From: a virus
Lineage: Duplodnaviria > Caudoviricetes
Virus record (IMG/VR): IMGVR_UViG_3300043446_004177
Location: 1 to 57,092 of that record
DNA length: 57,092 bases
Direction: 5' to 3' (one strand)
How positions within the stretch are numbered: position 1 is the first letter of the stretch; each line of letters opens with the position of its first letter. Made by a program: the position numbers and the translations under genes. Of this stretch, positions 9,610 to 56,823 are shown one piece after another. The notes beneath the pieces were generated by a model, which made no database searches, was not told the origin of the DNA, and saw only the letters and a program-made list of their open reading frames with translations.

Positions 9610-9895
9610 GCCGAATAGATATTTTAGATATCCAAAACACCCACTATCCAAAACGAGGGCTAAGAGCTTGATTTTATTGTATAATATTTTATAGATATAT
9701 AGATATATATATAGATATATATACCTTCTCTCTCTTTAGTTTGAAAACAGTCTCCATGTCTATCTCTCTATCTCTATCTATTATTGTCTCTGTTTCTATC
9801 TCTATATATCTCTCTCTTAAGACTATCCATTCTAGCCTAATATCTGTAATGATTTCAATGGCTTATAAAATATCAAAAAAAACTATCTATCTAAG
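9610..9895. other. AT-rich non-coding region with TAGA/TATC repeats flanked by inverted IHF-like sites; candidate origin or packaging-control region
   Basis: ATAGATATATAG runs, then TATCTCTCTA runs. AATCAAGCTCTTA (minus, 9661-9673) and TTTCAATGGCTTA (plus, 9853-9865) fit WATCAANNNNTTR with 0 and 1 mismatch. Confidence 0.5.
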
Positions 9896-11128: not shown

Positions 11129-11329
11129 TTACTGCAAATTTATCTGTTCACCGCTCGGCGGCTGGCAAACGCCCTCGACGATCAAGTTGTGCGCCATGCG
11201 GCCGTAGCGGCCCTGCAAGCGCCATACGAGGCCCGTGTCGATCAAGGCCTGCCAAGCCTCAATGACGGTTTCGAAGTCAACTGGGCCTGCCTCGCCTTCG
11301 ATGATTTCAATTGCGTCTAGCGTGTTCAT
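11129..11329 (-). CDS. Small helical phage protein, paralog of 11329..11517
   Basis: DAIEIIE..AWQALIDTGLVWRLQGRYGRMAHNLIVEGVC; AGGAGG RBS and TAATG coupling. Confidence 0.8.
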   Translation of the reverse strand: MNTLDAIEIIEGEAGPVDFETVIEAWQALIDTGLVWRLQGRYGRMAHNLIVEGVCQPPSGEQINLQ

Positions 11330-11517
11330 TATGCGGCCTCCTTCTTGCTATAACAGATACCGAAGTCGATCAGATACTGAGCTTCCTGAGCGTATTCTGC
11401 GCCCAGATCCCAGATCAGGTCAAAATCTATCAAGGTCTGATAGGCATTGGCTACGACGTAGAAATCCGCATCTTCGTCGGCGTATTGTACAATATTGATT
11501 GCGTCTTGGATGGTCAT
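11329..11517 (-). CDS. Small acidic helical phage protein, paralog of 11129..11329
   Basis: DAINIVQ..AYQTLIDFDLIWDLGAEYAQEAQYLIDFGIC; GGAGG RBS. Confidence 0.8.
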   Translation of the reverse strand: MTIQDAINIVQYADEDADFYVVANAYQTLIDFDLIWDLGAEYAQEAQYLIDFGICYSKKEAA

Positions 11518-12770: not shown

Positions 12771-12799
12771 AAAAAAGAGGGGGTCGAAACCCCCTCTTT
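12771..12799 (-). terminator. Intrinsic terminator closing the pentamer array
   Basis: AAAGAGGGGGT-TTCG-ACCCCCTCTTT-TTT, 4 nt after the last pentamer. Confidence 0.85.
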
Positions 12800-12803
12800 A
12801 TGT

Positions 12804-13415
12804 TTGCGGTGCTTGGCCTATCCTGACCGTGCGCCGCCTTGTCACGCCTGCTTTGCATTACACAGCATTGCCCCGCCATACGACGCCTCGTCTTGCCTGC
12901 CGTGCCTCGCCATGCCGCACCGAGCCGCGCTCTGCCCAGCCCGTCCCAGTACTGCCGAGCCTGCCTTGCTGCGCCATGCCGCACCGAGCTGCGCCTTGCC
13001 TAGCCTGCCTTGCCGATCCGGTCGATGCCGCGCCTTGCAAGTCCCAGCCGTGCCGTGCCTGCCTTGCCTGACCTCGCCCAAACTAGCCTCACACTGCCGT
13101 GCCTTGCCTGCCTTGCCACGGCTCGCCGCGACTCGTCAGACCAGTACGCGCCTCGCCTTGCCTGCCCCGCCTTGCCTCGCATTGCCGAGCAGTGCCTAGT
13201 CTCGCCTGCGTTGCCCCGCCTTGCTATGACAATCCATGGCTCACCGTGTCGTGCCGTGCCTGCCTCGCCAGACGTTGCCAGACCTAGCCATACCGTGTCC
13301 CGCCTCGCCTGCCTTGCGTGGTCATGCCTAGCGTATCCTCGGCTCGCCGTACCGTGCCTGCCTTGCCCTGCTGTGCGTTACCGAACCACCAGCGCCCAGC
13401 ATTGCGAAGCCTGCC
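12804..13415 (-). ncRNA. Array of 12 putative guide-RNA units made of GGY-NN pentamers (VIPR-like array)
   Basis: Hand parsing gives 112 pentamers: 68 start with exact GGC/GGT, 41 have one mismatch and 3 have two. Units have 8-12 pentamers and each begins with a 4-nt NGCA phase break. The array lies between a stop codon and a terminator, downstream of a Cas7-like gene. Confidence 0.8.
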
Positions 13416-13422
13416 ATTTGGC

Positions 13423-13857
13423 TTAGGCAGCATTCTCAAGAAGAAGTTTCTCCTTGAGACTCTCGATGTGTTCGATGATCTCATCGAGCTCTGGCGCAGC
13501 CAGATTCTTAAGCATCGTCGCACACGTCGTGAGTGTCATGAGTACGAGCGTGATACGATCAGCGTGACGAACCACAACCTGCTGTGTGGCTTCATAACCT
13601 GATCCCGTCGGCGATCGTACGAATACTGGAACCCGCACCACTTCATTATCGGAGCGGATCACCTCAACCTTTACACGTTTGATCAGTGCGCGAGCCTGTT
13701 GCAAACGATAAAGATGAGAAGCCTCATTATCATCCCACACAAATTGATTGTGCATGGATGAATTGGGGTTTCTTGCTGCCTCGACAACCTGTTCAGGTTC
13801 GAGAACACCCCCCACTGCAAGCTGTTGAAGCTCGTCTTTTATTGCGTTGATGTCCAT
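13423..13857 (-). CDS. Partner protein of the Cas7-like gene (144 aa from MDINAIK)
   Basis: G.LEPEQVVEAARNPNSSMHNQFVWDD.EA..YRLQQARALI motif. It starts 2 nt after the Cas7-like stop and ends 7 nt before the array. Confidence 0.75.
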   Translation of the reverse strand: MDINAIKDELQQLAVGGVLEPEQVVEAARNPNSSMHNQFVWDDNEASHLYRLQQARALIKRVKVEVIRSDNEVVRVPVFVRSPTGSGYEATQQVVVRHADRITLVLMTLTTCATMLKNLAAPELDEIIEHIESLKEKLLLENAA

Positions 13858-13858
13858 A

Positions 13859-14494
13859 TCAAGCTCTTTCAATTTCAAACGTCCCAAAACCTAAACCTGT
13901 TGATGATTTGGAATCATGTCGGCCTTCACCAATACCGACCTGAACACCAGCACGCATAAGCAAGTTGGTCACATCGGTAAGAGTAAATTGATCGGCATCG
14001 TATTTCACACGCAGATCAATATGCCACTTGCGCCACATCGGCCGCACGCGAATATCGACAACACCTGTCGCATTTCGTGTGTGCATATCGAGGCGCTCCC
14101 AATCGCCGTGTAAGTGAACAAGAGGAACACCATCGACAGCGTCGAACGTGTCTGCCTCGACAAAGATAGAAAGCTTTGCAAGCGTCATCTTAAAACCAAC
14201 GAGACGACACGCAGAGATCATAGCATTACGAAACGCGCCCGCGGGTACGCCGTTCTTGCCATCAACACCGATATGCATTGCATCTCTACAGTCTTGATCA
14301 AAGTCACGCGCGTCACGCACTTTCTTGCCTTTGGCTGTGCCGCCTGCTTCCATCTTCGCCATCATGGCAAGCTTTGCTTTTTGTGAAAATCGAGCTTGTA
14401 CAAAAGGCGCAGTACCAATCAGCTTAAAGCTTGCTGTCTGGATTTTTGGTGCAGTGATTGCAACAATTTCTGTCTTCTTTGTTTTATCTAACAT
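13859..14494 (-). CDS. Cas7/RAMP-superfamily-like RNA-binding protein (Vipr-like)
   Basis: N-terminal strand FKLIGTAPF; VPAGAFRNAM (compare the IPGSSLKG motif of Cas7-group RAMPs); IRVRPMWRKW; C-terminal glycine-rich loop AGVQVGIGEGR..GLGFGTF. Confidence 0.8.
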   Translation of the reverse strand: MLDKTKKTEIVAITAPKIQTASFKLIGTAPFVQARFSQKAKLAMMAKMEAGGTAKGKKVRDARDFDQDCRDAMHIGVDGKNGVPAGAFRNAMISACRLVGFKMTLAKLSIFVEADTFDAVDGVPLVHLHGDWERLDMHTRNATGVVDIRVRPMWRKWHIDLRVKYDADQFTLTDVTNLLMRAGVQVGIGEGRHDSKSSTGLGFGTFEIERA

Positions 14495-34944: not shown

Positions 34945-37562
34945 CAGAACCGTCCATCAAGTTGGTATCTATAACGAATAGCGCCAATCCTGAAAAAGTT
35001 ATTCAGATTTGCCGTTGTTCCGTTTGATGTTGAAATGCCAATTGACAACAACCTATTTCTAATTCTTGTTGATATATATGTTGTCGACGGTGAAATTGAG
35101 TATGGACCATAAGTTGTAATTGGACCATCTGGGTAGTCTTGACCATAAAATGACAAATAAATTGTTTGGTTGGAGCTAGATTGCCCATCCGTTGTTTGCC
35201 ATTTGAAATCAGGCCAAATTTGATCAATGAAGATAAGATTATCAGCTTCATTCAATTGCATATAACCAGTTTGGAATGATGAGACCATTGGAGATCCGTT
35301 GTTATCATACCCAATTTCATGCTGAACAAAATTGCCGCCCTGATCAACGCCAATTGGAAGCCCTAAAACAGATTGATCTGTCCAAGACAATCGAGAAAGA
35401 GAACCGTAGTCCCATTGGCCGATATTTGTATTGTATTTTACATAACGATCATTAATTGTACTTCCATAAGAAGGATAATACCACGTCACTTCGTTAAAAA
35501 TACTATTTGTTGCACAGCGGATAAGATCAGTTTTGTCTGTATTTAAGTCTTGAAAAATATTATCCCAAACAGGACAAGGAATTGTTTTTGGTCCATCAGA
35601 TGCAAGCATATTGAATGCTTTTGGTGACATCCAAAATACATTACCATTTAAAACGCCAGCGGCTTTTTTGCCTATCAACCCAACGCCATCAGCAATTTTA
35701 TTAAAACCATACACATTTTGTCCGCCCACAAATTGCATGAGCCAAATAGCAAGATCTGTCCAAATAACTGCTTGGTGCGGCCCTTGAATAGCTCCTACAA
35801 TTGAAGAGCCTTCTGGAATGCGATAAGAGCCAGCAAGGTTGGTTGTTGTCGGTGTCCAAGATGTCGCGTCTCCAGCATCGCTCCAACGAACAAGAAGCGG
35901 GTCAATCAAACCCGTTTCAGTTGAGCCATAAGCAACAACTTGCCGAGCTGGCATCGTTACAAATATTCCGTTGTTTGCAAGAGGAGCGGACGAAAGCAAA
36001 AAAGCGTTTTGCGTATCTTGGGATGGGGCCCAGTAATAAATTGGTCCGCCTTCTGGATTGCTAAGAAGCACTTCGCCAAAATTAGCAATCGTCCAATCAT
36101 TTGATTTTATTGTTGGTGCAGAAGGATAAGGAATAAGAACACCTTGTCCATATCCGTTTTCTCCATAACCGCCATATCCATATCCATATGAAGTAAACGG
36201 AGAAGGTATGTTATAATAATAAATTGCATGAACATTATCATTGTTCATGGTAATTGTTGTTGTCGCAGGAGCAGCTGTTGATGCATTTATTTCGTATTTT
36301 GTTGTTGGTGATGATGCATTTAATGTAACAGTATAAGGACCATAAATTGTTATGGTGTTTGAACCAGAAGTGTAACTTGTCGGATAAACAAAAGTTACAA
36401 TGTCGCCTGTTTGATAAGGATGATTTGGCTGAGTTACTGTTACGGTTGATGTACCAGAAGTTAAATCAAATGTAGGAAGATAAGAAACACCATAAGGACT
36501 TGGAGTAACTGTTACAATTTTTCCAATATCAATTGTAAAACAGCTATAATATAAATTTGATGTATATCCAGTAGCCGAGTACCCACCAGAAATTATTCTG
36601 TTTCCAATGCTAACAGGCGTTTGATAATTAACGCCAAAACCTGTTAAAATCTGATCAGGCAAATATGCAACAACCGCAGTTCCATTTGTTGTAAAATTTA
36701 CAGCACTTCCGCCAACGGTAGTTGAAACTTGGAATGTTGTGTCTGTTAATTTTAAAACATAATATTTTGTGCCTTTGGATAGACCAGTAGGCATAGTTGT
36801 TGCATTAAATGTGACAACTGTATTTGTATCAGGAGCATAGCCCGCTGTTATTACGTCTGTTGTTGCATTACATGTAACGCTTTGTTTAAGAAACTCAGTA
36901 TCTGTGACAATAATTTGCGATGAGTTATTTGTCGCAACGAATGTTGGAATATATGCTGTAATCGTTCCTGTTGATGCAGCTACGGTAGAAATTGGAGATC
37001 CAGATGAATCAACAAGAGTGAACGTGCGAGAAGTATAATTTGCGCTTGCTGCAAAATAAACTTCATACTCTGTGATAGGTGAAGGAAGTGTCGCCCCAGA
37101 ACCTTTTTTAAAATAAACAGGAATATCGTCTGGAACGGGAAGGTTTGATGCTCCAGAAACTGTCACTGTTCCGCCAATAGCAATTGTAACGGTATAAGAA
37201 GTTCCGTTTAATGCTTCGTCGCCTTTGGCATTATCTGATCCATCTGATGGAGGCCATTGTTGTGGCGTTATGTCATCATATGTATATGCTGGGGGATCAT
37301 TGGTAATATATGAAAGCTCAGAATAAGCTCCAATCGCAAGGCGTGAAACGCCATAAAGATCTTGCCAAGGATGAATTTCAGAAACATTTTGAACAGATCT
37401 GTTACCCCAACCGACCCATCCGCCTAGCTTTTGAGCGATGCCCATTCCATTTCTGTCAGCCATAAACCGTATATTTTCAGAATATGAAAAAGCAGCTTCA
37501 TTCAAAACAGGCGTTTTGATCGTATCAATGCCGGGTATTAATTTCATCGTCGCATGAGGCAT
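34944..37562 (-). CDS. Tail nozzle / tubular protein B-like (P22 gp10-like) with inserted beta-rich domains
   Basis: KLGGW, VRWSD, AVIWTD, IPCPVWD, FNEVTWYYPS, W..G.L.R..W.D and R.RY..DGR; 872 aa. Confidence 0.75.
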   Translation of the reverse strand: MPHATMKLIPGIDTIKTPVLNEAAFSYSENIRFMADRNGMGIAQKLGGWVGWGNRSVQNVSEIHPWQDLYGVSRLAIGAYSELSYITNDPPAYTYDDITPQQWPPSDGSDNAKGDEALNGTSYTVTIAIGGTVTVSGASNLPVPDDIPVYFKKGSGATLPSPITEYEVYFAASANYTSRTFTLVDSSGSPISTVAASTGTITAYIPTFVATNNSSQIIVTDTEFLKQSVTCNATTDVITAGYAPDTNTVVTFNATTMPTGLSKGTKYYVLKLTDTTFQVSTTVGGSAVNFTTNGTAVVAYLPDQILTGFGVNYQTPVSIGNRIISGGYSATGYTSNLYYSCFTIDIGKIVTVTPSPYGVSYLPTFDLTSGTSTVTVTQPNHPYQTGDIVTFVYPTSYTSGSNTITIYGPYTVTLNASSPTTKYEINASTAAPATTTITMNNDNVHAIYYYNIPSPFTSYGYGYGGYGENGYGQGVLIPYPSAPTIKSNDWTIANFGEVLLSNPEGGPIYYWAPSQDTQNAFLLSSAPLANNGIFVTMPARQVVAYGSTETGLIDPLLVRWSDAGDATSWTPTTTNLAGSYRIPEGSSIVGAIQGPHQAVIWTDLAIWLMQFVGGQNVYGFNKIADGVGLIGKKAAGVLNGNVFWMSPKAFNMLASDGPKTIPCPVWDNIFQDLNTDKTDLIRCATNSIFNEVTWYYPSYGSTINDRYVKYNTNIGQWDYGSLSRLSWTDQSVLGLPIGVDQGGNFVQHEIGYDNNGSPMVSSFQTGYMQLNEADNLIFIDQIWPDFKWQTTDGQSSSNQTIYLSFYGQDYPDGPITTYGPYSISPSTTYISTRIRNRLLSIGISTSNGTTANLNNFFRIGAIRYRYQLDGRF

Positions 37563-40080: not shown

Positions 40081-41648
40081 TCGTATAAAATATTCCAGTA
40101 GCCGTTTAGAAAGGTCGTTGAGTAAGATGGGTCAATTTGCAATTGAACCGCTGTCAAAGTTCCGCCCAAAGATAACCCGCCTGCAAAAAAACCAGCTTGC
40201 GGAGAGCTACCCATTTCCGTACCTTGAATTACCCAATAATCGCTTCCAACATTTGTAATTGTGCAAGAAAAACTCCCATTTCCTGATCCTGTACTTACTA
40301 AACAGCACCACAGCCCACCAGCTGAAAGAGAACTTTTATCTCCTGCTGTTGTGTTAAGATAACTATAATAGCTTGTTGCATAGGTTGGTGTTGCGCCATA
40401 TCCCAAACGTATCCATAAATAAAATGAACTTCCATTTGGTGTTATACTCCAACCTGTGACAGTAATCCTTCTAACCCAAGAAGGAATACCTGTAAAAGAA
40501 GAAGATGTTCCACTTGTTAAACTTTTATATGTTTCTTGAACAAGAGTTACCCCACCTGCATCAGAAGTGATCAATCCATCATTGGCAATTTGAACGGTTG
40601 ATTGAAGTGTGTTTGCTGTTGACCCAGATGTCGTCGACGCTGGCGCTGTCCAAAAATCAATAATGCCAGAACCGCCTGTGCCCGTGCCATTGCCAGCTTT
40701 CACCGTAAAATTTTGTCCTGTTATATTGGTTCCAGTCGTCGCAGGGACACGGATTGAATTGGCTGTCGTTGTTGCCGTTCCGTCTCCTGAACCAAAAATT
40801 GAATCACCAGAATTATTAATAACAAGACGAGTTACTGGAGTTGCTGTTCCATTTGGCGATGTAGCAAAATTAAGTGCGCCGGGCATATCTGCTGAAGTTC
40901 CCGGTGTGCCATCGACGGTCGCAATAATTGTTGCCGCTGTTTGAAATGATGAATCCCATCCATCAAAATAAATTGACCCAAGTTGATCACCAGATAAAAC
41001 TGTTGTTGGTGTTGTTTCTGTCCCTCTTGATGAACGTAAACGAAAATCTGGACCATCCGTAGTGGATACATATTGTGTCAAATATGCTGATACTGCTGTA
41101 TCGTTTGTCAAACTTAATAATACGCTGTTTGTTGTTGATGACCCGATAGTTAAATTATCAGAGACACTAAAAGTTTGCGCGCTTTGTGGTGCGTTGCGAA
41201 TATTTGTTCCGTCTGAATAAATGAGCGCTGCTTTGCCATTTTGAATTGTAACGCCCGTACCAGATGCTGTTTTTATTGTGACGGTATATGTGCTTTGGTT
41301 CGCCGAAGAAATTGCATTTCGAACAACCCACATTCCGCCCAAAGGAAGGGGAGTTGTTCCAAACCCTGTATTCGGAATTGTTATTGTAATATTCCCAGTC
41401 AAGGGAACCGCACCGCCAGATGTCCCGCTTTGAATAACAAGCTGTTGTGCCGTATACCAAAAAACACCATTTGTGTCTGCGGCAGTCGCGCTCGTTAGCG
41501 CGGTTGTTCCTGAAGCTCCAACATAAACAATATAAGCAGAACCAAATGACTGATCAATGGACGTAAAATCGCTATTGAGCGTCAGGCCCCAACCTGTATC
41601 GCCAACATTTGGTTCTGTTATCTTTTTGTTATTTGTAATCGTAGCCAT
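40077..41648 (-). CDS. Tail fibre/spike-like protein
   Basis: 523 aa, Thr/Gly/Ser-rich; WG.TLN..F..ID N-terminus; YSDGTNI; SFTGIPSWVRRITV C-terminal module. Confidence 0.7.
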   Translation of the reverse strand: MATITNNKKITEPNVGDTGWGLTLNSDFTSIDQSFGSAYIVYVGASGTTALTSATAADTNGVFWYTAQQLVIQSGTSGGAVPLTGNITITIPNTGFGTTPLPLGGMWVVRNAISSANQSTYTVTIKTASGTGVTIQNGKAALIYSDGTNIRNAPQSAQTFSVSDNLTIGSSTTNSVLLSLTNDTAVSAYLTQYVSTTDGPDFRLRSSRGTETTPTTVLSGDQLGSIYFDGWDSSFQTAATIIATVDGTPGTSADMPGALNFATSPNGTATPVTRLVINNSGDSIFGSGDGTATTTANSIRVPATTGTNITGQNFTVKAGNGTGTGGSGIIDFWTAPASTTSGSTANTLQSTVQIANDGLITSDAGGVTLVQETYKSLTSGTSSSFTGIPSWVRRITVTGWSITPNGSSFYLWIRLGYGATPTYATSYYSYLNTTAGDKSSLSAGGLWCCLVSTGSGNGSFSCTITNVGSDYWVIQGTEMGSSPQAGFFAGGLSLGGTLTAVQLQIDPSYSTTFLNGYWNILYE

Positions 41649-54513: not shown

Positions 54514-56823
54514 TTACTTTTTGCCGACGACTTTGCCAGCCTTGTGCCCGTAGGCCTTGATTTTTTCCAAGCGGCCAAGACCGCCGCCCGCTGCATGATC
54601 AATTACATGCGTTGTGCGACCACCCGTATTGCGGGGCTTGTGAGCTTGGATTTCCGTCTTCTCAAGGCGACCTTTGCCGCTGCCTGCGCCCGCATCCATG
54701 TCCTTATAAGAACGATAGGCGCGACCGCCTGACTTGCGCGGCATTGGTGCGCCCTGCGGAGGCATAGGAGGCATTGGAGGCATGCCGCCTTGCGGAGGCA
54801 TTGGCATGCCCTGCGGGGGCATAGGAGGCGGAACAGGCATTGCTTTCGGCATAGGAACAGGCGCGTTTGGCATTCCCATTGGCTGCTGTTGGCCTTTGCC
54901 AGTTGCAATGACAATATTGATGTTTGTCTTGCCCTTGGTGCGACCGCCTTTTTTAAAGCCTGCTACACCTTGACCTTGTTGTTGCATTAATCTGCGACGA
55001 GAAGCATCAATTTGCTCTTGCTGCATCAAGTCTTGCAATGTGCGATCTAAAGCGCCAAAAGTTTGCGGTTCAGGTGCAACAGGCGTTGGTGCCTGCCTCA
55101 TCATAGCATTACGACTTGCTTGCATATTTGTAGAAAGCCTGTCTTCTGGTGCCGTCATTTCCTGATAAGGATTGTAGGAAACAAAAGTTGGTTCCTGCCT
55201 CATCATAGCATTACGATATGCCATTTCGTTCGTAGCAGTTGTGTCTCGCGCTCCTACATCCGCATACGGATTATAACGAAGTTGCGCTTCACGATAAGCA
55301 CGGTCTCCCATGACATCCTGCGTCTGACGATCACGCACACGCGATGCCTGATCTTCAGCAATGCGTTGAGCGCGCATTTGGGCTTCCATTTCCATCTGCT
55401 GTTGCGGATCACGCATACCAAACTGCGTTGACCCCGGCATTGGACCGCTTGCAGGCTTGTATGCAGGGGCTGTTGCAGACTTGCCAGAAGCTAATGCTGT
55501 AGCCGCTTTCTTAGCAGGCATATCGGCTTCTTTTGACGGCCCGCCAAAAAAGCTTTTATCGGTGCGATAATAATCGACGCGAGGGCCTTCGCCAAAATTG
55601 ACGATGCGTGAGCCAATATTCTTTGGGTCTACGCCAAATTTTTTGGCAAAATCTTCCTTTGTAATGCCTGCAACAGCACCTTTTTCCTCAAGGCTTTTAA
55701 TCATCTTGCTGTTGTCAAACATATCGGAAAACCAATTTCCGCCTTTTTCGTCTTCTGTTTTGCCGCCCTTTGCATGAGCATGACGACCGCCGACTGCACC
55801 GGGGATCTTGGTCAATGAATCGCCCGAGAACACGCCGCCGCCCGCATATTTCATCGTGCGACCGCCACCGCACATTTTGCATGTGCAGTCTTTGTGGTGC
55901 ATGGCTTTGCCGCCCTCTTTTAATCCCTTCATGGATTTTTGCTTATCGTGCTTTTCATCAAGCTTCGACTTCTCCCACTTTTCCATGGAGATGCCATACT
56001 TCTTGGCAAGCAAACGATCTTGGGCCTCGTCCTTCTTAGAACCTTCCCAATTCTTTACCTTGCCGCCCTTCTTACGCGCATCAGGATAATCAGGTGATTT
56101 TGTTGGGTTGCCTTTCATCGAGCCATACTTGGCAAGATTAGTAACCTTTTCCTGATCGGCATCGCTATATTGAACGCCTTTGTAATCAGGCGATGGCGTT
56201 GTTGGACGATAACCTTCTTCGACGCCTGTGGACTTGCCGCCCCACTTTTTGTGGACCTTGCCGCCCTTCTTCATCATGCCTGCGGCTTTGCCCATGGCAC
56301 GCGACTGATCCGAGATCGGATTGTCGCCAATCGGGCCGCCGCCAAACTTCTTGGCAACGCCACCTGTCTTGATAACGCCGCGGCCTTTAAGAACGTCAGC
56401 TTTTGTGACCTTTCCGTCGCCCGTCAAATCGGGGAACGCCTTGCCGCCCTTCTTGAACGCGCCGACGTGCTTTTTGCCTTCGCGCGCTTCATTCGCCATG
56501 CGAACGTCGCGATTGATCAGATTGTCAGGTGTCAGATACCGCTTTGAGCGATCCTCGGCCTCTGTGCCAATGCGTCCGCCAGATTTGCGCGGCTTACGAT
56601 CAGCACGGGCTTTTGCAGCTACGCCATCAATTTTGCCAACTACTTTACCGCCCTTCTTGTACAAACGCTTTACAAGCGGACGAGCGCCTGTCTTCACGTC
56701 GGCATTAAGCGCCTCGGGCGGTGACCATGTGGACGAATCAACTTTTTGGCTTGGGTCGGATTTGGTAAGGCGCTCTGCCTTACTCTTCATTGCCGACCTT
56801 GCGGCTTTCGCGGCTTCTGACAT
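54514..56823 (-). CDS. Large basic low-complexity virion protein with about 15 xxxGG motifs
   Basis: 769 aa; YKKGG, RKSGG, FKKGG, MKKGG, LKEGG, HAKGG and others; EF-hand-like [12 protein letters not shown]; Pro/Met-rich tail. Confidence 0.75.

Follow-up and report, generated by a model that had tools for sequence, protein, structure and literature searches.

In this study we describe an array of short repeats in a 57,092-bp stretch of viral DNA (IMG/VR record IMGVR_UViG_3300043446_004177), which was analysed at its full length and is called the window throughout, and we relate this array to VIPR, a DNA-silencing system published in 2026 that is guided by RNA and related to CRISPR (bioRxiv 10.64898/2026.04.26.720920). 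According to the text of that preprint, a VIPR system combines a small Cas7-like protein, Vipr, with guide RNAs, the vrRNAs, in which GGY and NN alternate; seven types (I-VII) and the accessory genes vap1-6 are distinguished. The window represents the entire genome of a phage, bounded by direct terminal repeats, and has genes for terminase, portal, capsid, tail, primase, helicase, Sak4 and SSB. Among GenBank phages we found no close relative; the closest TerL and primase are 54-59% identical and both come from an uncultured spring phage. The locus under study lies on the minus strand and begins with a gene for a protein of 211 amino acids (aa; 13859..14494), which belongs to phrog_4652 and which we assign to vipr by sequence profile and structural model. 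It is followed by a gene for a 154-aa protein (13423..13887), a gap of 7 nucleotides (nt), the array itself, running from 13415 down to 12804, and, 4 nt past the last unit, an intrinsic terminator (12774..12799) with an 11-pair stem and a subsequent T-run. An equivalent hairpin stands immediately beyond the last boundary of the array in two relatives (L002 and L003). By its periodicity and register the array on 12804..13415 reads as a staggered vrRNA array of 12 units and 112 GGY-NN pentamers.

The basic period of the array is five nucleotides: base autocorrelation over 12804-13415 amounts to 0.50 at lag 5 and 0.485 at lag 10, compared with 0.20-0.23 at lags 1-3. In the profile of the 112 pentamers position 1 is G in 89 (79%), position 2 is G in 93 (83%) and position 3 is a pyrimidine in 100 (89%; 85 C and 15 T), with positions 4 and 5 variable. 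G and C are unequally distributed between the strands (256 G, 154 C). No second GGY-NN array occurs in the 57-kb window, and the array scored 63.7 against 4.2-6.4 in five shuffles of the whole window. An earlier note, made from the sequence alone, had proposed a second level of structure, namely 12 units of 44-64 nt whose register slips by a 4-nt NGCA at every boundary. We reproduced the coordinates and lengths of these units exactly on the minus strand, and an independent extraction returned identical NN strings, including an additional internal 4-nt slip (TGGT) in the first unit. All twelve units open with NGCA followed by GGC (GGCA in ten, CGCA in U5 and AGCA in U12), and NGCAA forms the 3' end of nine of the twelve, the same count as before. 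The 68 exact GGC triplets run through the register 0,4,3,2,1,0,4,3,2,1,0,4,3,2, i.e. minus one base at each of the 12 NGCA-GGC boundaries. We also utilized a dynamic programme for register tracking, which was given nothing but the GGY motif and could take steps of 4, 5 or 6 nt, those of 4 and 6 at a penalty. Blind to the proposed units, it placed 11 slips, all of them 4-nt and all on the boundaries of the earlier note, at spacings of 49, 49, 54, 44, 54, 49, 54, 44, 64 and 49 nt; the first boundary was missed because tracking starts within the degenerate U1. Tandem Repeats Finder reported only short pieces of period 5-14 and nothing at the 44-64-nt level, and a comparison with Rfam detected neither a ribozyme nor any other RNA family within the array.

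Each unit thus defined comprises 8-12 complete pentamers; counted together with the GGCA(G) of the boundary, this comes to 9-13 repeats per unit. In minus-strand order, with their NN pairs, the units are as follows. U1 (13363..13415, 53 nt) is degenerate and reads TT AA TG GC / TC AA AC AG AA, the stroke marking its internal 4-nt step TGGT; U2 (13314..13362, 49 nt) reads AC AC GA GA TA TA AT CA AA; U3 (13265..13313, 49 nt) GA GG AC AT TA CT AA CT GA; and U4 (13211..13264, 54 nt) AC AC AC GA AT TT AT AA GG AA. The middle of the array holds U5 (13167..13210, 44 nt) with GA TA AC TC AA GA AA GG; U6 (13113..13166, 54 nt) with AA GA GC CT CT GA GC GA GT AA; U7 (13064..13112, 49 nt) with AA AC AG GA TA TG GA CA AA; and U8 (13010..13063, 54 nt) with AC AC TG CT AA GC AT CC TC AA. 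Towards the terminator follow U9 (12966..13009, 44 nt), TA AA GC TC GC AT GC AA; U10 (12902..12965, 64 nt), TC AG TG CG TG AG GC TC GC AT GA AC; U11 (12853..12901, 49 nt), AA GA GT AT GG AA TG AA AA; and U12 (12804..12852, 49 nt), GT AA GG AC CA TA CA AC AA. U9 agrees with the final eight NN pairs of U10 in 12 of 16 bases, each of the four mismatches being in the second letter of its pair. It may be that these two units are paralogous guides that recognise variant forms of a single site. As a separate observation, the window contains two copies of the E. coli-type Chi octamer GCTGGTGG, both on its minus strand, one at 13386-13393 inside the degenerate U1 and the other at 40315-40322; its presence in U1 is probably a coincidence.

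The 211-aa protein has no Pfam family. Relatives are numerous: 7,263 were found at E<=0.001 and, in a separate count, 2,232 clusters at 50% identity. Its sole sequence match in the PDB is the Vipr of phage SUSP1 (36pp_D), with an E-value of 0.026 for the single sequence; when a profile of 54 sequences was compared with the PDB sequences, the same chain was the only significant match (E 6.2e-7). The likeness is confined to the C-terminal ~50 residues. Within them R138 and R179 of SUSP1 align with the identical R151 and R192, D177 aligns with E190 and W178 with G191, the last of these not being conserved; H17 and K33 of SUSP1 lie outside the aligned stretch. The G-loop GIGEGR (residues 187-192) aligns with GVGDWR of SUSP1, and the glycine-rich loop GIGEGR together with G200, G202 and G204 is invariant or nearly so among the 54 relatives. 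An AlphaFold2 model of the protein (pLDDT 93.5) has Csm3, Cmr4, type VII Cas7 and Cas7-11 as its top Foldseek matches (E ~1e-5, prob 1.00, TM 0.40-0.56). On profile and predicted structure, the 211-aa protein is thus a Vipr, a Cas7-like RAMP protein predicted to bind pentamer repeats.

The 154-aa gene, a member of phrog_15946, is a candidate vap (vipr-accessory) gene. It overlaps the end of vipr by 29 nt, and its stop codon lies 7 nt ahead of the first GGCA of the array. There are 33 homologues, and the gene is kept at the same position in relatives; in Cyanophage Cy-LDV1 the array comes straight after vipr, with no gene of the 154-aa type between. Apart from phrog_15946 the protein belongs to no Pfam or NCBIfam family. 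In its model (pLDDT 83.5) VIA-align matched a C-terminal helical hairpin and nothing else, and PADLOC returned a weak Cas3d match (16 bits) for the 154-aa protein only.

In order to see the array in its relatives, we compared 12 arrays for which the Vipr protein, and not the repeat motif, had served as the query: that of the window, those of eight IMG/VR relatives (Vipr 78-98% identical to the window's), one on a contig of a metagenome-assembled genome (MAG; its label, Aestuariivirga, is a binning assignment to which we give no weight), that of Cyanophage Cy-LDV1 (69%) and that of Mycobacterium phage Donkeykong (31%). All 134 slips in these arrays are 4-nt slips and none is a 6-nt slip; the slip reads NGCA in 125 of the 134 and is followed by GGC in 128, and 105 of 122 inter-slip units comprise 7-12 pentamers. 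The pentamer before the boundary pentamer carries AA at 57 of the 134 boundaries, and at nine of twelve in the window. The 4-nt slip is a fixed property of the window's Vipr clade. A wider set of 121 fetched loci (119 via the boundary motif GCAAGGCAGGCANGGC and two via the vap protein) contained an array in 66 and gave 488 four-nt against four six-nt slips, a ratio mostly biased by the motif-based discovery. These numbers bear on the best surviving alternative, namely that the array is transcribed as one long scaffold RNA of ~620 nt, coated by Vipr and serving as a store, a sponge or a multivalent DNA binder, its slips being scars of duplication or insertion. Such scars should include +1 steps and other sizes, instead of 134 uniform slips of which 125 read NGCA, and their spacing is bounded at 7-12 pentamers, a range like that of published single vrRNAs, for which the preprint text gives 9-16 repeats (bioRxiv 10.64898/2026.04.26.720920). 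The same preprint speaks of ‘individual processed vrRNAs’ in a figure legend. A single RNA would agree with the lone terminator that serves the whole array and with the apparent lack of a processing enzyme, ribozyme or tail at the unit junctions; folding predictions for the full-length RNA also come out somewhat more stable than those for shuffled sequences (z -3.05, 20 shuffles). Since relatives exchange whole units, as set out below, we consider the scaffold RNA unlikely.

The exchange of units is seen best in L002 and L003, whose vap and Vipr proteins are 84-85% and 98% identical to those of the window. These two arrays have most units in common and differ from each other by whole units; with the window they share just U5 and U12, each with 15 of 16 NN bases equal. 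By unit, U5 has 15 of 16 NN bases in common with a unit of L123/L124, and U12 has 15 of 16 in common with a unit of L123. In contigs of relatives from the runs of other studies both flanks of the array were matched and the interior was joined with unit-sized skips or replacements, among them a skip of 49 nt from 13113 to 13163, across most of U6, in two runs; because these contigs were placed at 85% likeness, they add weak support. Taken as sequence comparisons, these cases support the view that units are separate cassettes which are retained, lost or swapped whole among relatives. The earlier note had regarded each unit as a separate guide with 16-24 informative bases: the turnover of whole cassettes agrees with the first part, while the informative length may be one or two pairs shorter, for reasons given with the proposed mechanism.

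Two further relatives are worth describing in their own right. In Donkeykong (locus L210, 2052-2365; NC_051648.1, ~36921-37234) a staggered GGY-NN array of seven units, delimited by GGCA, is found immediately upstream of gp49, the Vipr homologue, and is annotated as a coding sequence (CDS), gp48, for a hypothetical protein; a Vipr homologue is present in 27 Mycobacterium and 5 Gordonia phage records. In Cyanophage Cy-LDV1 (L209, 3650-3831; BK059895.1) a staggered array of four units directly follows the Vipr gene. Cy-LDV1 is temperate, with a cI-like repressor and an excisionase nearby.

If units are guides, the fate of their NN letters should differ between and within units. Neighbouring units within an array have unrelated NN strings. 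For units shared between arrays we compared 21 homologous pairs (185 pentamers), which had been chosen at an overall identity of >=80% and are not independent, and found 63 differences on GGY and 26 on NN, where uniform change expects 60:40 (binomial p 0.04). In retained guides, then, the NN letters are preserved no less well than the scaffold. CRISPR spacers behave in the same way, with retained letters kept and neighbours unrelated. Hence NN letters that vary between units and are kept within shared units are what should be expected of guides under target selection. The earlier note had made its idea depend on NN being more variable than GGY across related arrays. This holds across the array but not within shared units, where NN is at least as conserved as GGY; as a refutation the test was mis-framed, as conserved NN in shared units fits guides.

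The VIPR preprints describe in their text that NN pairs read DNA with one base skipped per pair, usually the wobble base (bioRxiv 10.64898/2026.04.26.720920, 10.64898/2026.04.26.720927 and 10.64898/2026.10.15.759431), and we searched for targets of the array on this basis. When the window was scanned with all of its units at skips of 0-3, the best matches equalled those of shuffled guides, and so there is no self-target. Searching 425 kb of fetched loci at >=85% with 114 guides of the window and its relatives gave no overall excess over controls (real against shuffled: 4 and 10 matches at skip 0, 17 and 9 at skip 1, 3 and 8 at skip 2, 7 and 7 at skip 3). Scans of large collections were made with exact patterns only, so that the published criterion of >=80% NN matches is inapplicable at that scale. 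In IMG/VR the exact xNN pattern of U10 (24 positions) had no match, that of U8 (18 positions) one, and that of U4 (18 positions) two, neither of which is extended by the terminal AA. The U5 core common to the relatives (15 positions plus one R) had 60 matches there, none of which extends to the three further pairs of the relative's unit (best 4 of 6). U12 (16 positions) had seven matches in unrelated genes and one homologous pair in IMG/VR, compared with a rough chance expectation of a few to tens. U10 at <=3 mismatches gave three matches in 301 genomes of the order of the MAG with the close Vipr, against two for the reversed control. U3 (18 positions) had 18 matches in JGI metagenomes, 15 of them in codon phase 0 and in seven unrelated protein clusters; because these clusters share a common short peptide motif, the matches are not a specific target, and they show that a wobble-skipping pattern collects conserved peptides.

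The gapped searches with shuffled controls that the earlier note had suggested thus ended at chance level in the window, the relatives and the collections, and the codon phase of the U3 matches, though mostly the expected one, goes with a common peptide motif and identifies no target. The composition of the NN pairs is more in line with the reading as NN-x and a skip of the wobble base. When codon positions 1-2 of the window's genes were compared with five other phase and strand models, positions 1-2 were best for the internal NN pairs of the window (n 81; -3.925 against -4.074 or worse, in bits per pair) and of the protein-found arrays (n 778; -3.925 against -4.013 or worse); for the 3,606 pairs of the motif-found arrays the best model was positions 1-2 in a mixture of sense and antisense (-3.970). 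In this respect the wobble skip put forward in the note agrees weakly with the letters of the array, but no target was matched in the scans. A side observation concerns the homologous pair among the U12 matches. Two IMG/VR contigs (L136 and L139) carry the same 23-mer at 2001-2023, in genes for small phage proteins that are 46% identical, within the motif EWNPLTDD; here it is codon position 1 that is skipped, and not the wobble position. It is the only match pair in homologous genes, and we judged it to be at chance level.

One could also think of a decoy or anti-VIPR array, whose units redirect the Vipr of a rival or target the vipr genes of rivals. Solo vrRNAs of satellites and phages are described in just this way: they redirect Vipr to decoy sites, and phage guides hit the VIPR systems of relatives (abstract-level statements of bioRxiv 10.64898/2026.10.15.759431). 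The present array, however, has its own vipr in the same operon, as does that of every relative examined, and none of the units of the window and 11 relatives matched the fetched vipr and vap regions above the shuffled level. We therefore regard a decoy as very improbable. The least probable of the alternatives is a repeat acting at the level of DNA (iterons, a packaging or replication site, a recombination hot spot) or a gene for a pentapeptide-like repeat protein. Open frames of 54-138 aa do cross the array in several frames, the Donkeykong equivalent is annotated as a CDS, and one Chi octamer lies in U1, but units are gained and lost in steps of 44, 49 or 64 nt, sizes not divisible by three, so that no reading frame would survive them. 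Strong strand asymmetry, strict co-occurrence with a Cas7-like gene in Proteobacteria-type phages, a cyanophage and actinophages, and the conservation of variable positions in shared units, which is not predicted for a DNA-binding iteron, all speak against it as well. A TRAP-like ring-binding RNA, a G-quadruplex array, a rut or Chi site and a pentapeptide-repeat open reading frame were dropped given the link to Vipr.

Taken together, we are confident that the region encodes the guide RNAs of a VIPR system carried by a phage, arranged in the staggered layout with 12 guides back to back. The identification as VIPR follows from the adjoining Vipr gene, the GGY/NN array on the same strand, the number of repeats, the lack of a self-target and a context that is not that of CRISPR. 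The locus shows the 1-nt overlap that defines the staggered layout. Several points weigh against this interpretation. Only 65 of the 112 pentamers have a perfect GGY, fewer than in several relatives (e.g. L132 and L126), and U1 is poor in repeat quality; as the array is rather degenerate, some of its units may be decaying. W178 of SUSP1, which is described as stacking on G2 (structure preprint, bioRxiv 10.64898/2026.04.26.720927), is replaced by glycine (G191), so the RNA contacts are not identical. The model of the 154-aa protein has no Foldseek match at E<=0.001 and no recognisable DNA-binding fold. No natural target was found above chance in the self, related-locus, IMG/VR, JGI and 301-genome scans, and codon positions 1-2 outperform a plain genome-dinucleotide model by a small margin of 0.03-0.08 bit per pair, so that NN composition supports the wobble skip weakly. 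No RNA run contains the locus, and in the preprint text small-RNA sequencing is named as confirmation only for the hammerhead and single-vrRNA layouts (bioRxiv 10.64898/2026.04.26.720920). The comparison with the staggered arrays of that preprint, in which no testable difference from the window appeared, covers its text and the legend to Fig. S18.

A probable mechanism can be drawn up by analogy with the SUSP1 system. The structure preprint reports one Vipr protomer per repeat, with GGY hidden (bioRxiv 10.64898/2026.04.26.720927). In the window, the transcript of an operon of vipr, the candidate vap, the array and the terminator would carry the 12 guide units. Vipr protomers would each bind one GGY-NN in a helical filament, with GGY buried and NN exposed, and the exposed pairs would read double-stranded DNA as NN-x-NN-x. 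A fixed step of 5 nt would be needed, because G1 and G2 are recognised by one protomer and Y3 by the next, and a 4-nt step where 5 are expected would mean that the filament in one register stops and a new one starts. The boundary GGCA and the next G would form the last pentamer of a unit, which shares its final base with the first pentamer of the following unit (GGCA|GGC). The boundary would thereby end one ribonucleoprotein and begin the next, replacing the ~40-nt pseudoknot tail of type II vrRNAs. Each unit would act as a separate guide of 8-12 pairs (16-24 bases) and silence the transcription of its target. The guides are most likely directed against rival phages or other mobile elements, rival elements being what VIPR silences in the published work. 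As the last pentamer is GGC-A-G with a fixed NN, and AA often precedes it, the 3' end of a unit resembles a short conserved handle, and the informative length may be one or two pairs below the 16-24 bases of the earlier note.

It might even be possible that the one-base slip alone delimits the guides, an idea that we put forward tentatively and hold to be more doubtful than the guide array as such. The GGC of the next unit would be out of phase, the filament would measure its own guide, neighbouring filaments would exclude each other at the shared base, and host RNases would cut the phosphodiesters left unprotected. If this were true, no repeat handle, tail, ribozyme or dedicated nuclease would be needed. 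With its 12 guides in 612 nt the array would then be more compact than any multi-guide array known, and it would offer a simple design rule for multiplexed VIPR guides.

Elsewhere in the window we noted some features that stand apart from the array. Near the left end of the genome a tandem repeat at 234-446 has a unit of 54 nt in 3.9 copies, which can also be read as 108 nt in two copies. A second tandem repeat, at 54733-54840 (57-nt unit, 1.9 copies), lies in or beside a 769-aa open reading frame (54514-56823). An AT-rich patch at 9675-9819 with short repeats of the TA and TCTATC type lies in the gap upstream of the small terminase gene and may be a regulatory or packaging-related region. On the minus strand two adjoining small genes, 11129-11329 and 11329-11517, both belong to DUF7417 and phrog_3908 and form a tandem duplicate pair; beside them is encoded a 252-aa protein with a match, under the Pfam threshold, to the DnaJ-type CxxCxGxG zinc finger.

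With this study a complete 57-kb phage genome with a clean staggered VIPR array of 12 guides is added to the known systems. New at the level of the family are the numbers for the layout (a slip that is always minus one base, an NGCA-GGC boundary and 7-12 pentamers per unit) and the finding that guides turn over as whole cassettes, with retained guides keeping their NN letters. In addition, cultured phages with the staggered layout can now be named: Cyanophage Cy-LDV1, Donkeykong and Cheoctovirus phages related to the latter; in Donkeykong the present annotation treats the array as protein-coding.

Compared with known systems, the array clearly belongs to a layout already published, of which it is a new example; it does not represent a novel type of element, and it leaves the picture of VIPR unchanged. 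The model that the earlier note arrived at is the published VIPR model point for point: separate guides, information in NN, the NN-x reading with a skipped wobble base, and a boundary that ends the filament or marks processing. The closest counterpart is the group of ‘staggered vrRNA arrays’ in the legend to Fig. S18 of the first preprint, in which vrRNAs overlap by 1 nt (bioRxiv 10.64898/2026.04.26.720920); its text contains no boundary consensus, unit-size statistics or turnover data for this layout. In those arrays and in the window alike the Vipr gene stands beside a continuous GGY-NN run whose successive guides overlap by 1 nt, with no tail or ribozyme between them. Type II VIPR of SUSP1 and of a Pseudomonas fulva prophage likewise has a small Cas7-like protein of ~200 aa, GGY-NN repeats at ~9-12 per guide, no self-targeting and a two-gene operon with an accessory gene, a place that the candidate vap would take in the window. 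The vrRNAs of SUSP1, however, are separate RNAs of ~100 nt, each with an invariant 3' tail of ~40 nt whose pseudoknot caps the filament, whereas the units of the window measure 44-64 nt, abut with a 1-nt overlap, have no tail and are followed by a lone terminator after U12. A further VIPR preprint is bioRxiv 10.64898/2026.10.21.760802. Towards CRISPR the distance is larger. No array of identical repeats with a CRISPR period (~60-79 nt) is present in the window, and the neighbouring genes include no Cas6, Cas5, large subunit or adaptation gene, and the Cas7-like fold is, apart from the weak Cas3d match, the only link to a Cas family. The Cas7 proteins of Class 1 CRISPR-Cas (e.g. Csm3 of type III-A) have the same RAMP fold, with one protomer per fixed step of guide RNA, and according to the VIPR preprints their thumb flips out bases at a regular period, which is a likeness to Vipr. 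The period itself is 5 nt with three hidden bases in the window, as opposed to 6 nt with one flipped base in Class 1 Cas7, and Class 1 guides are separated by repeats of ~30 nt, whereas those of the window's phage-borne system follow one another with no repeat between them.

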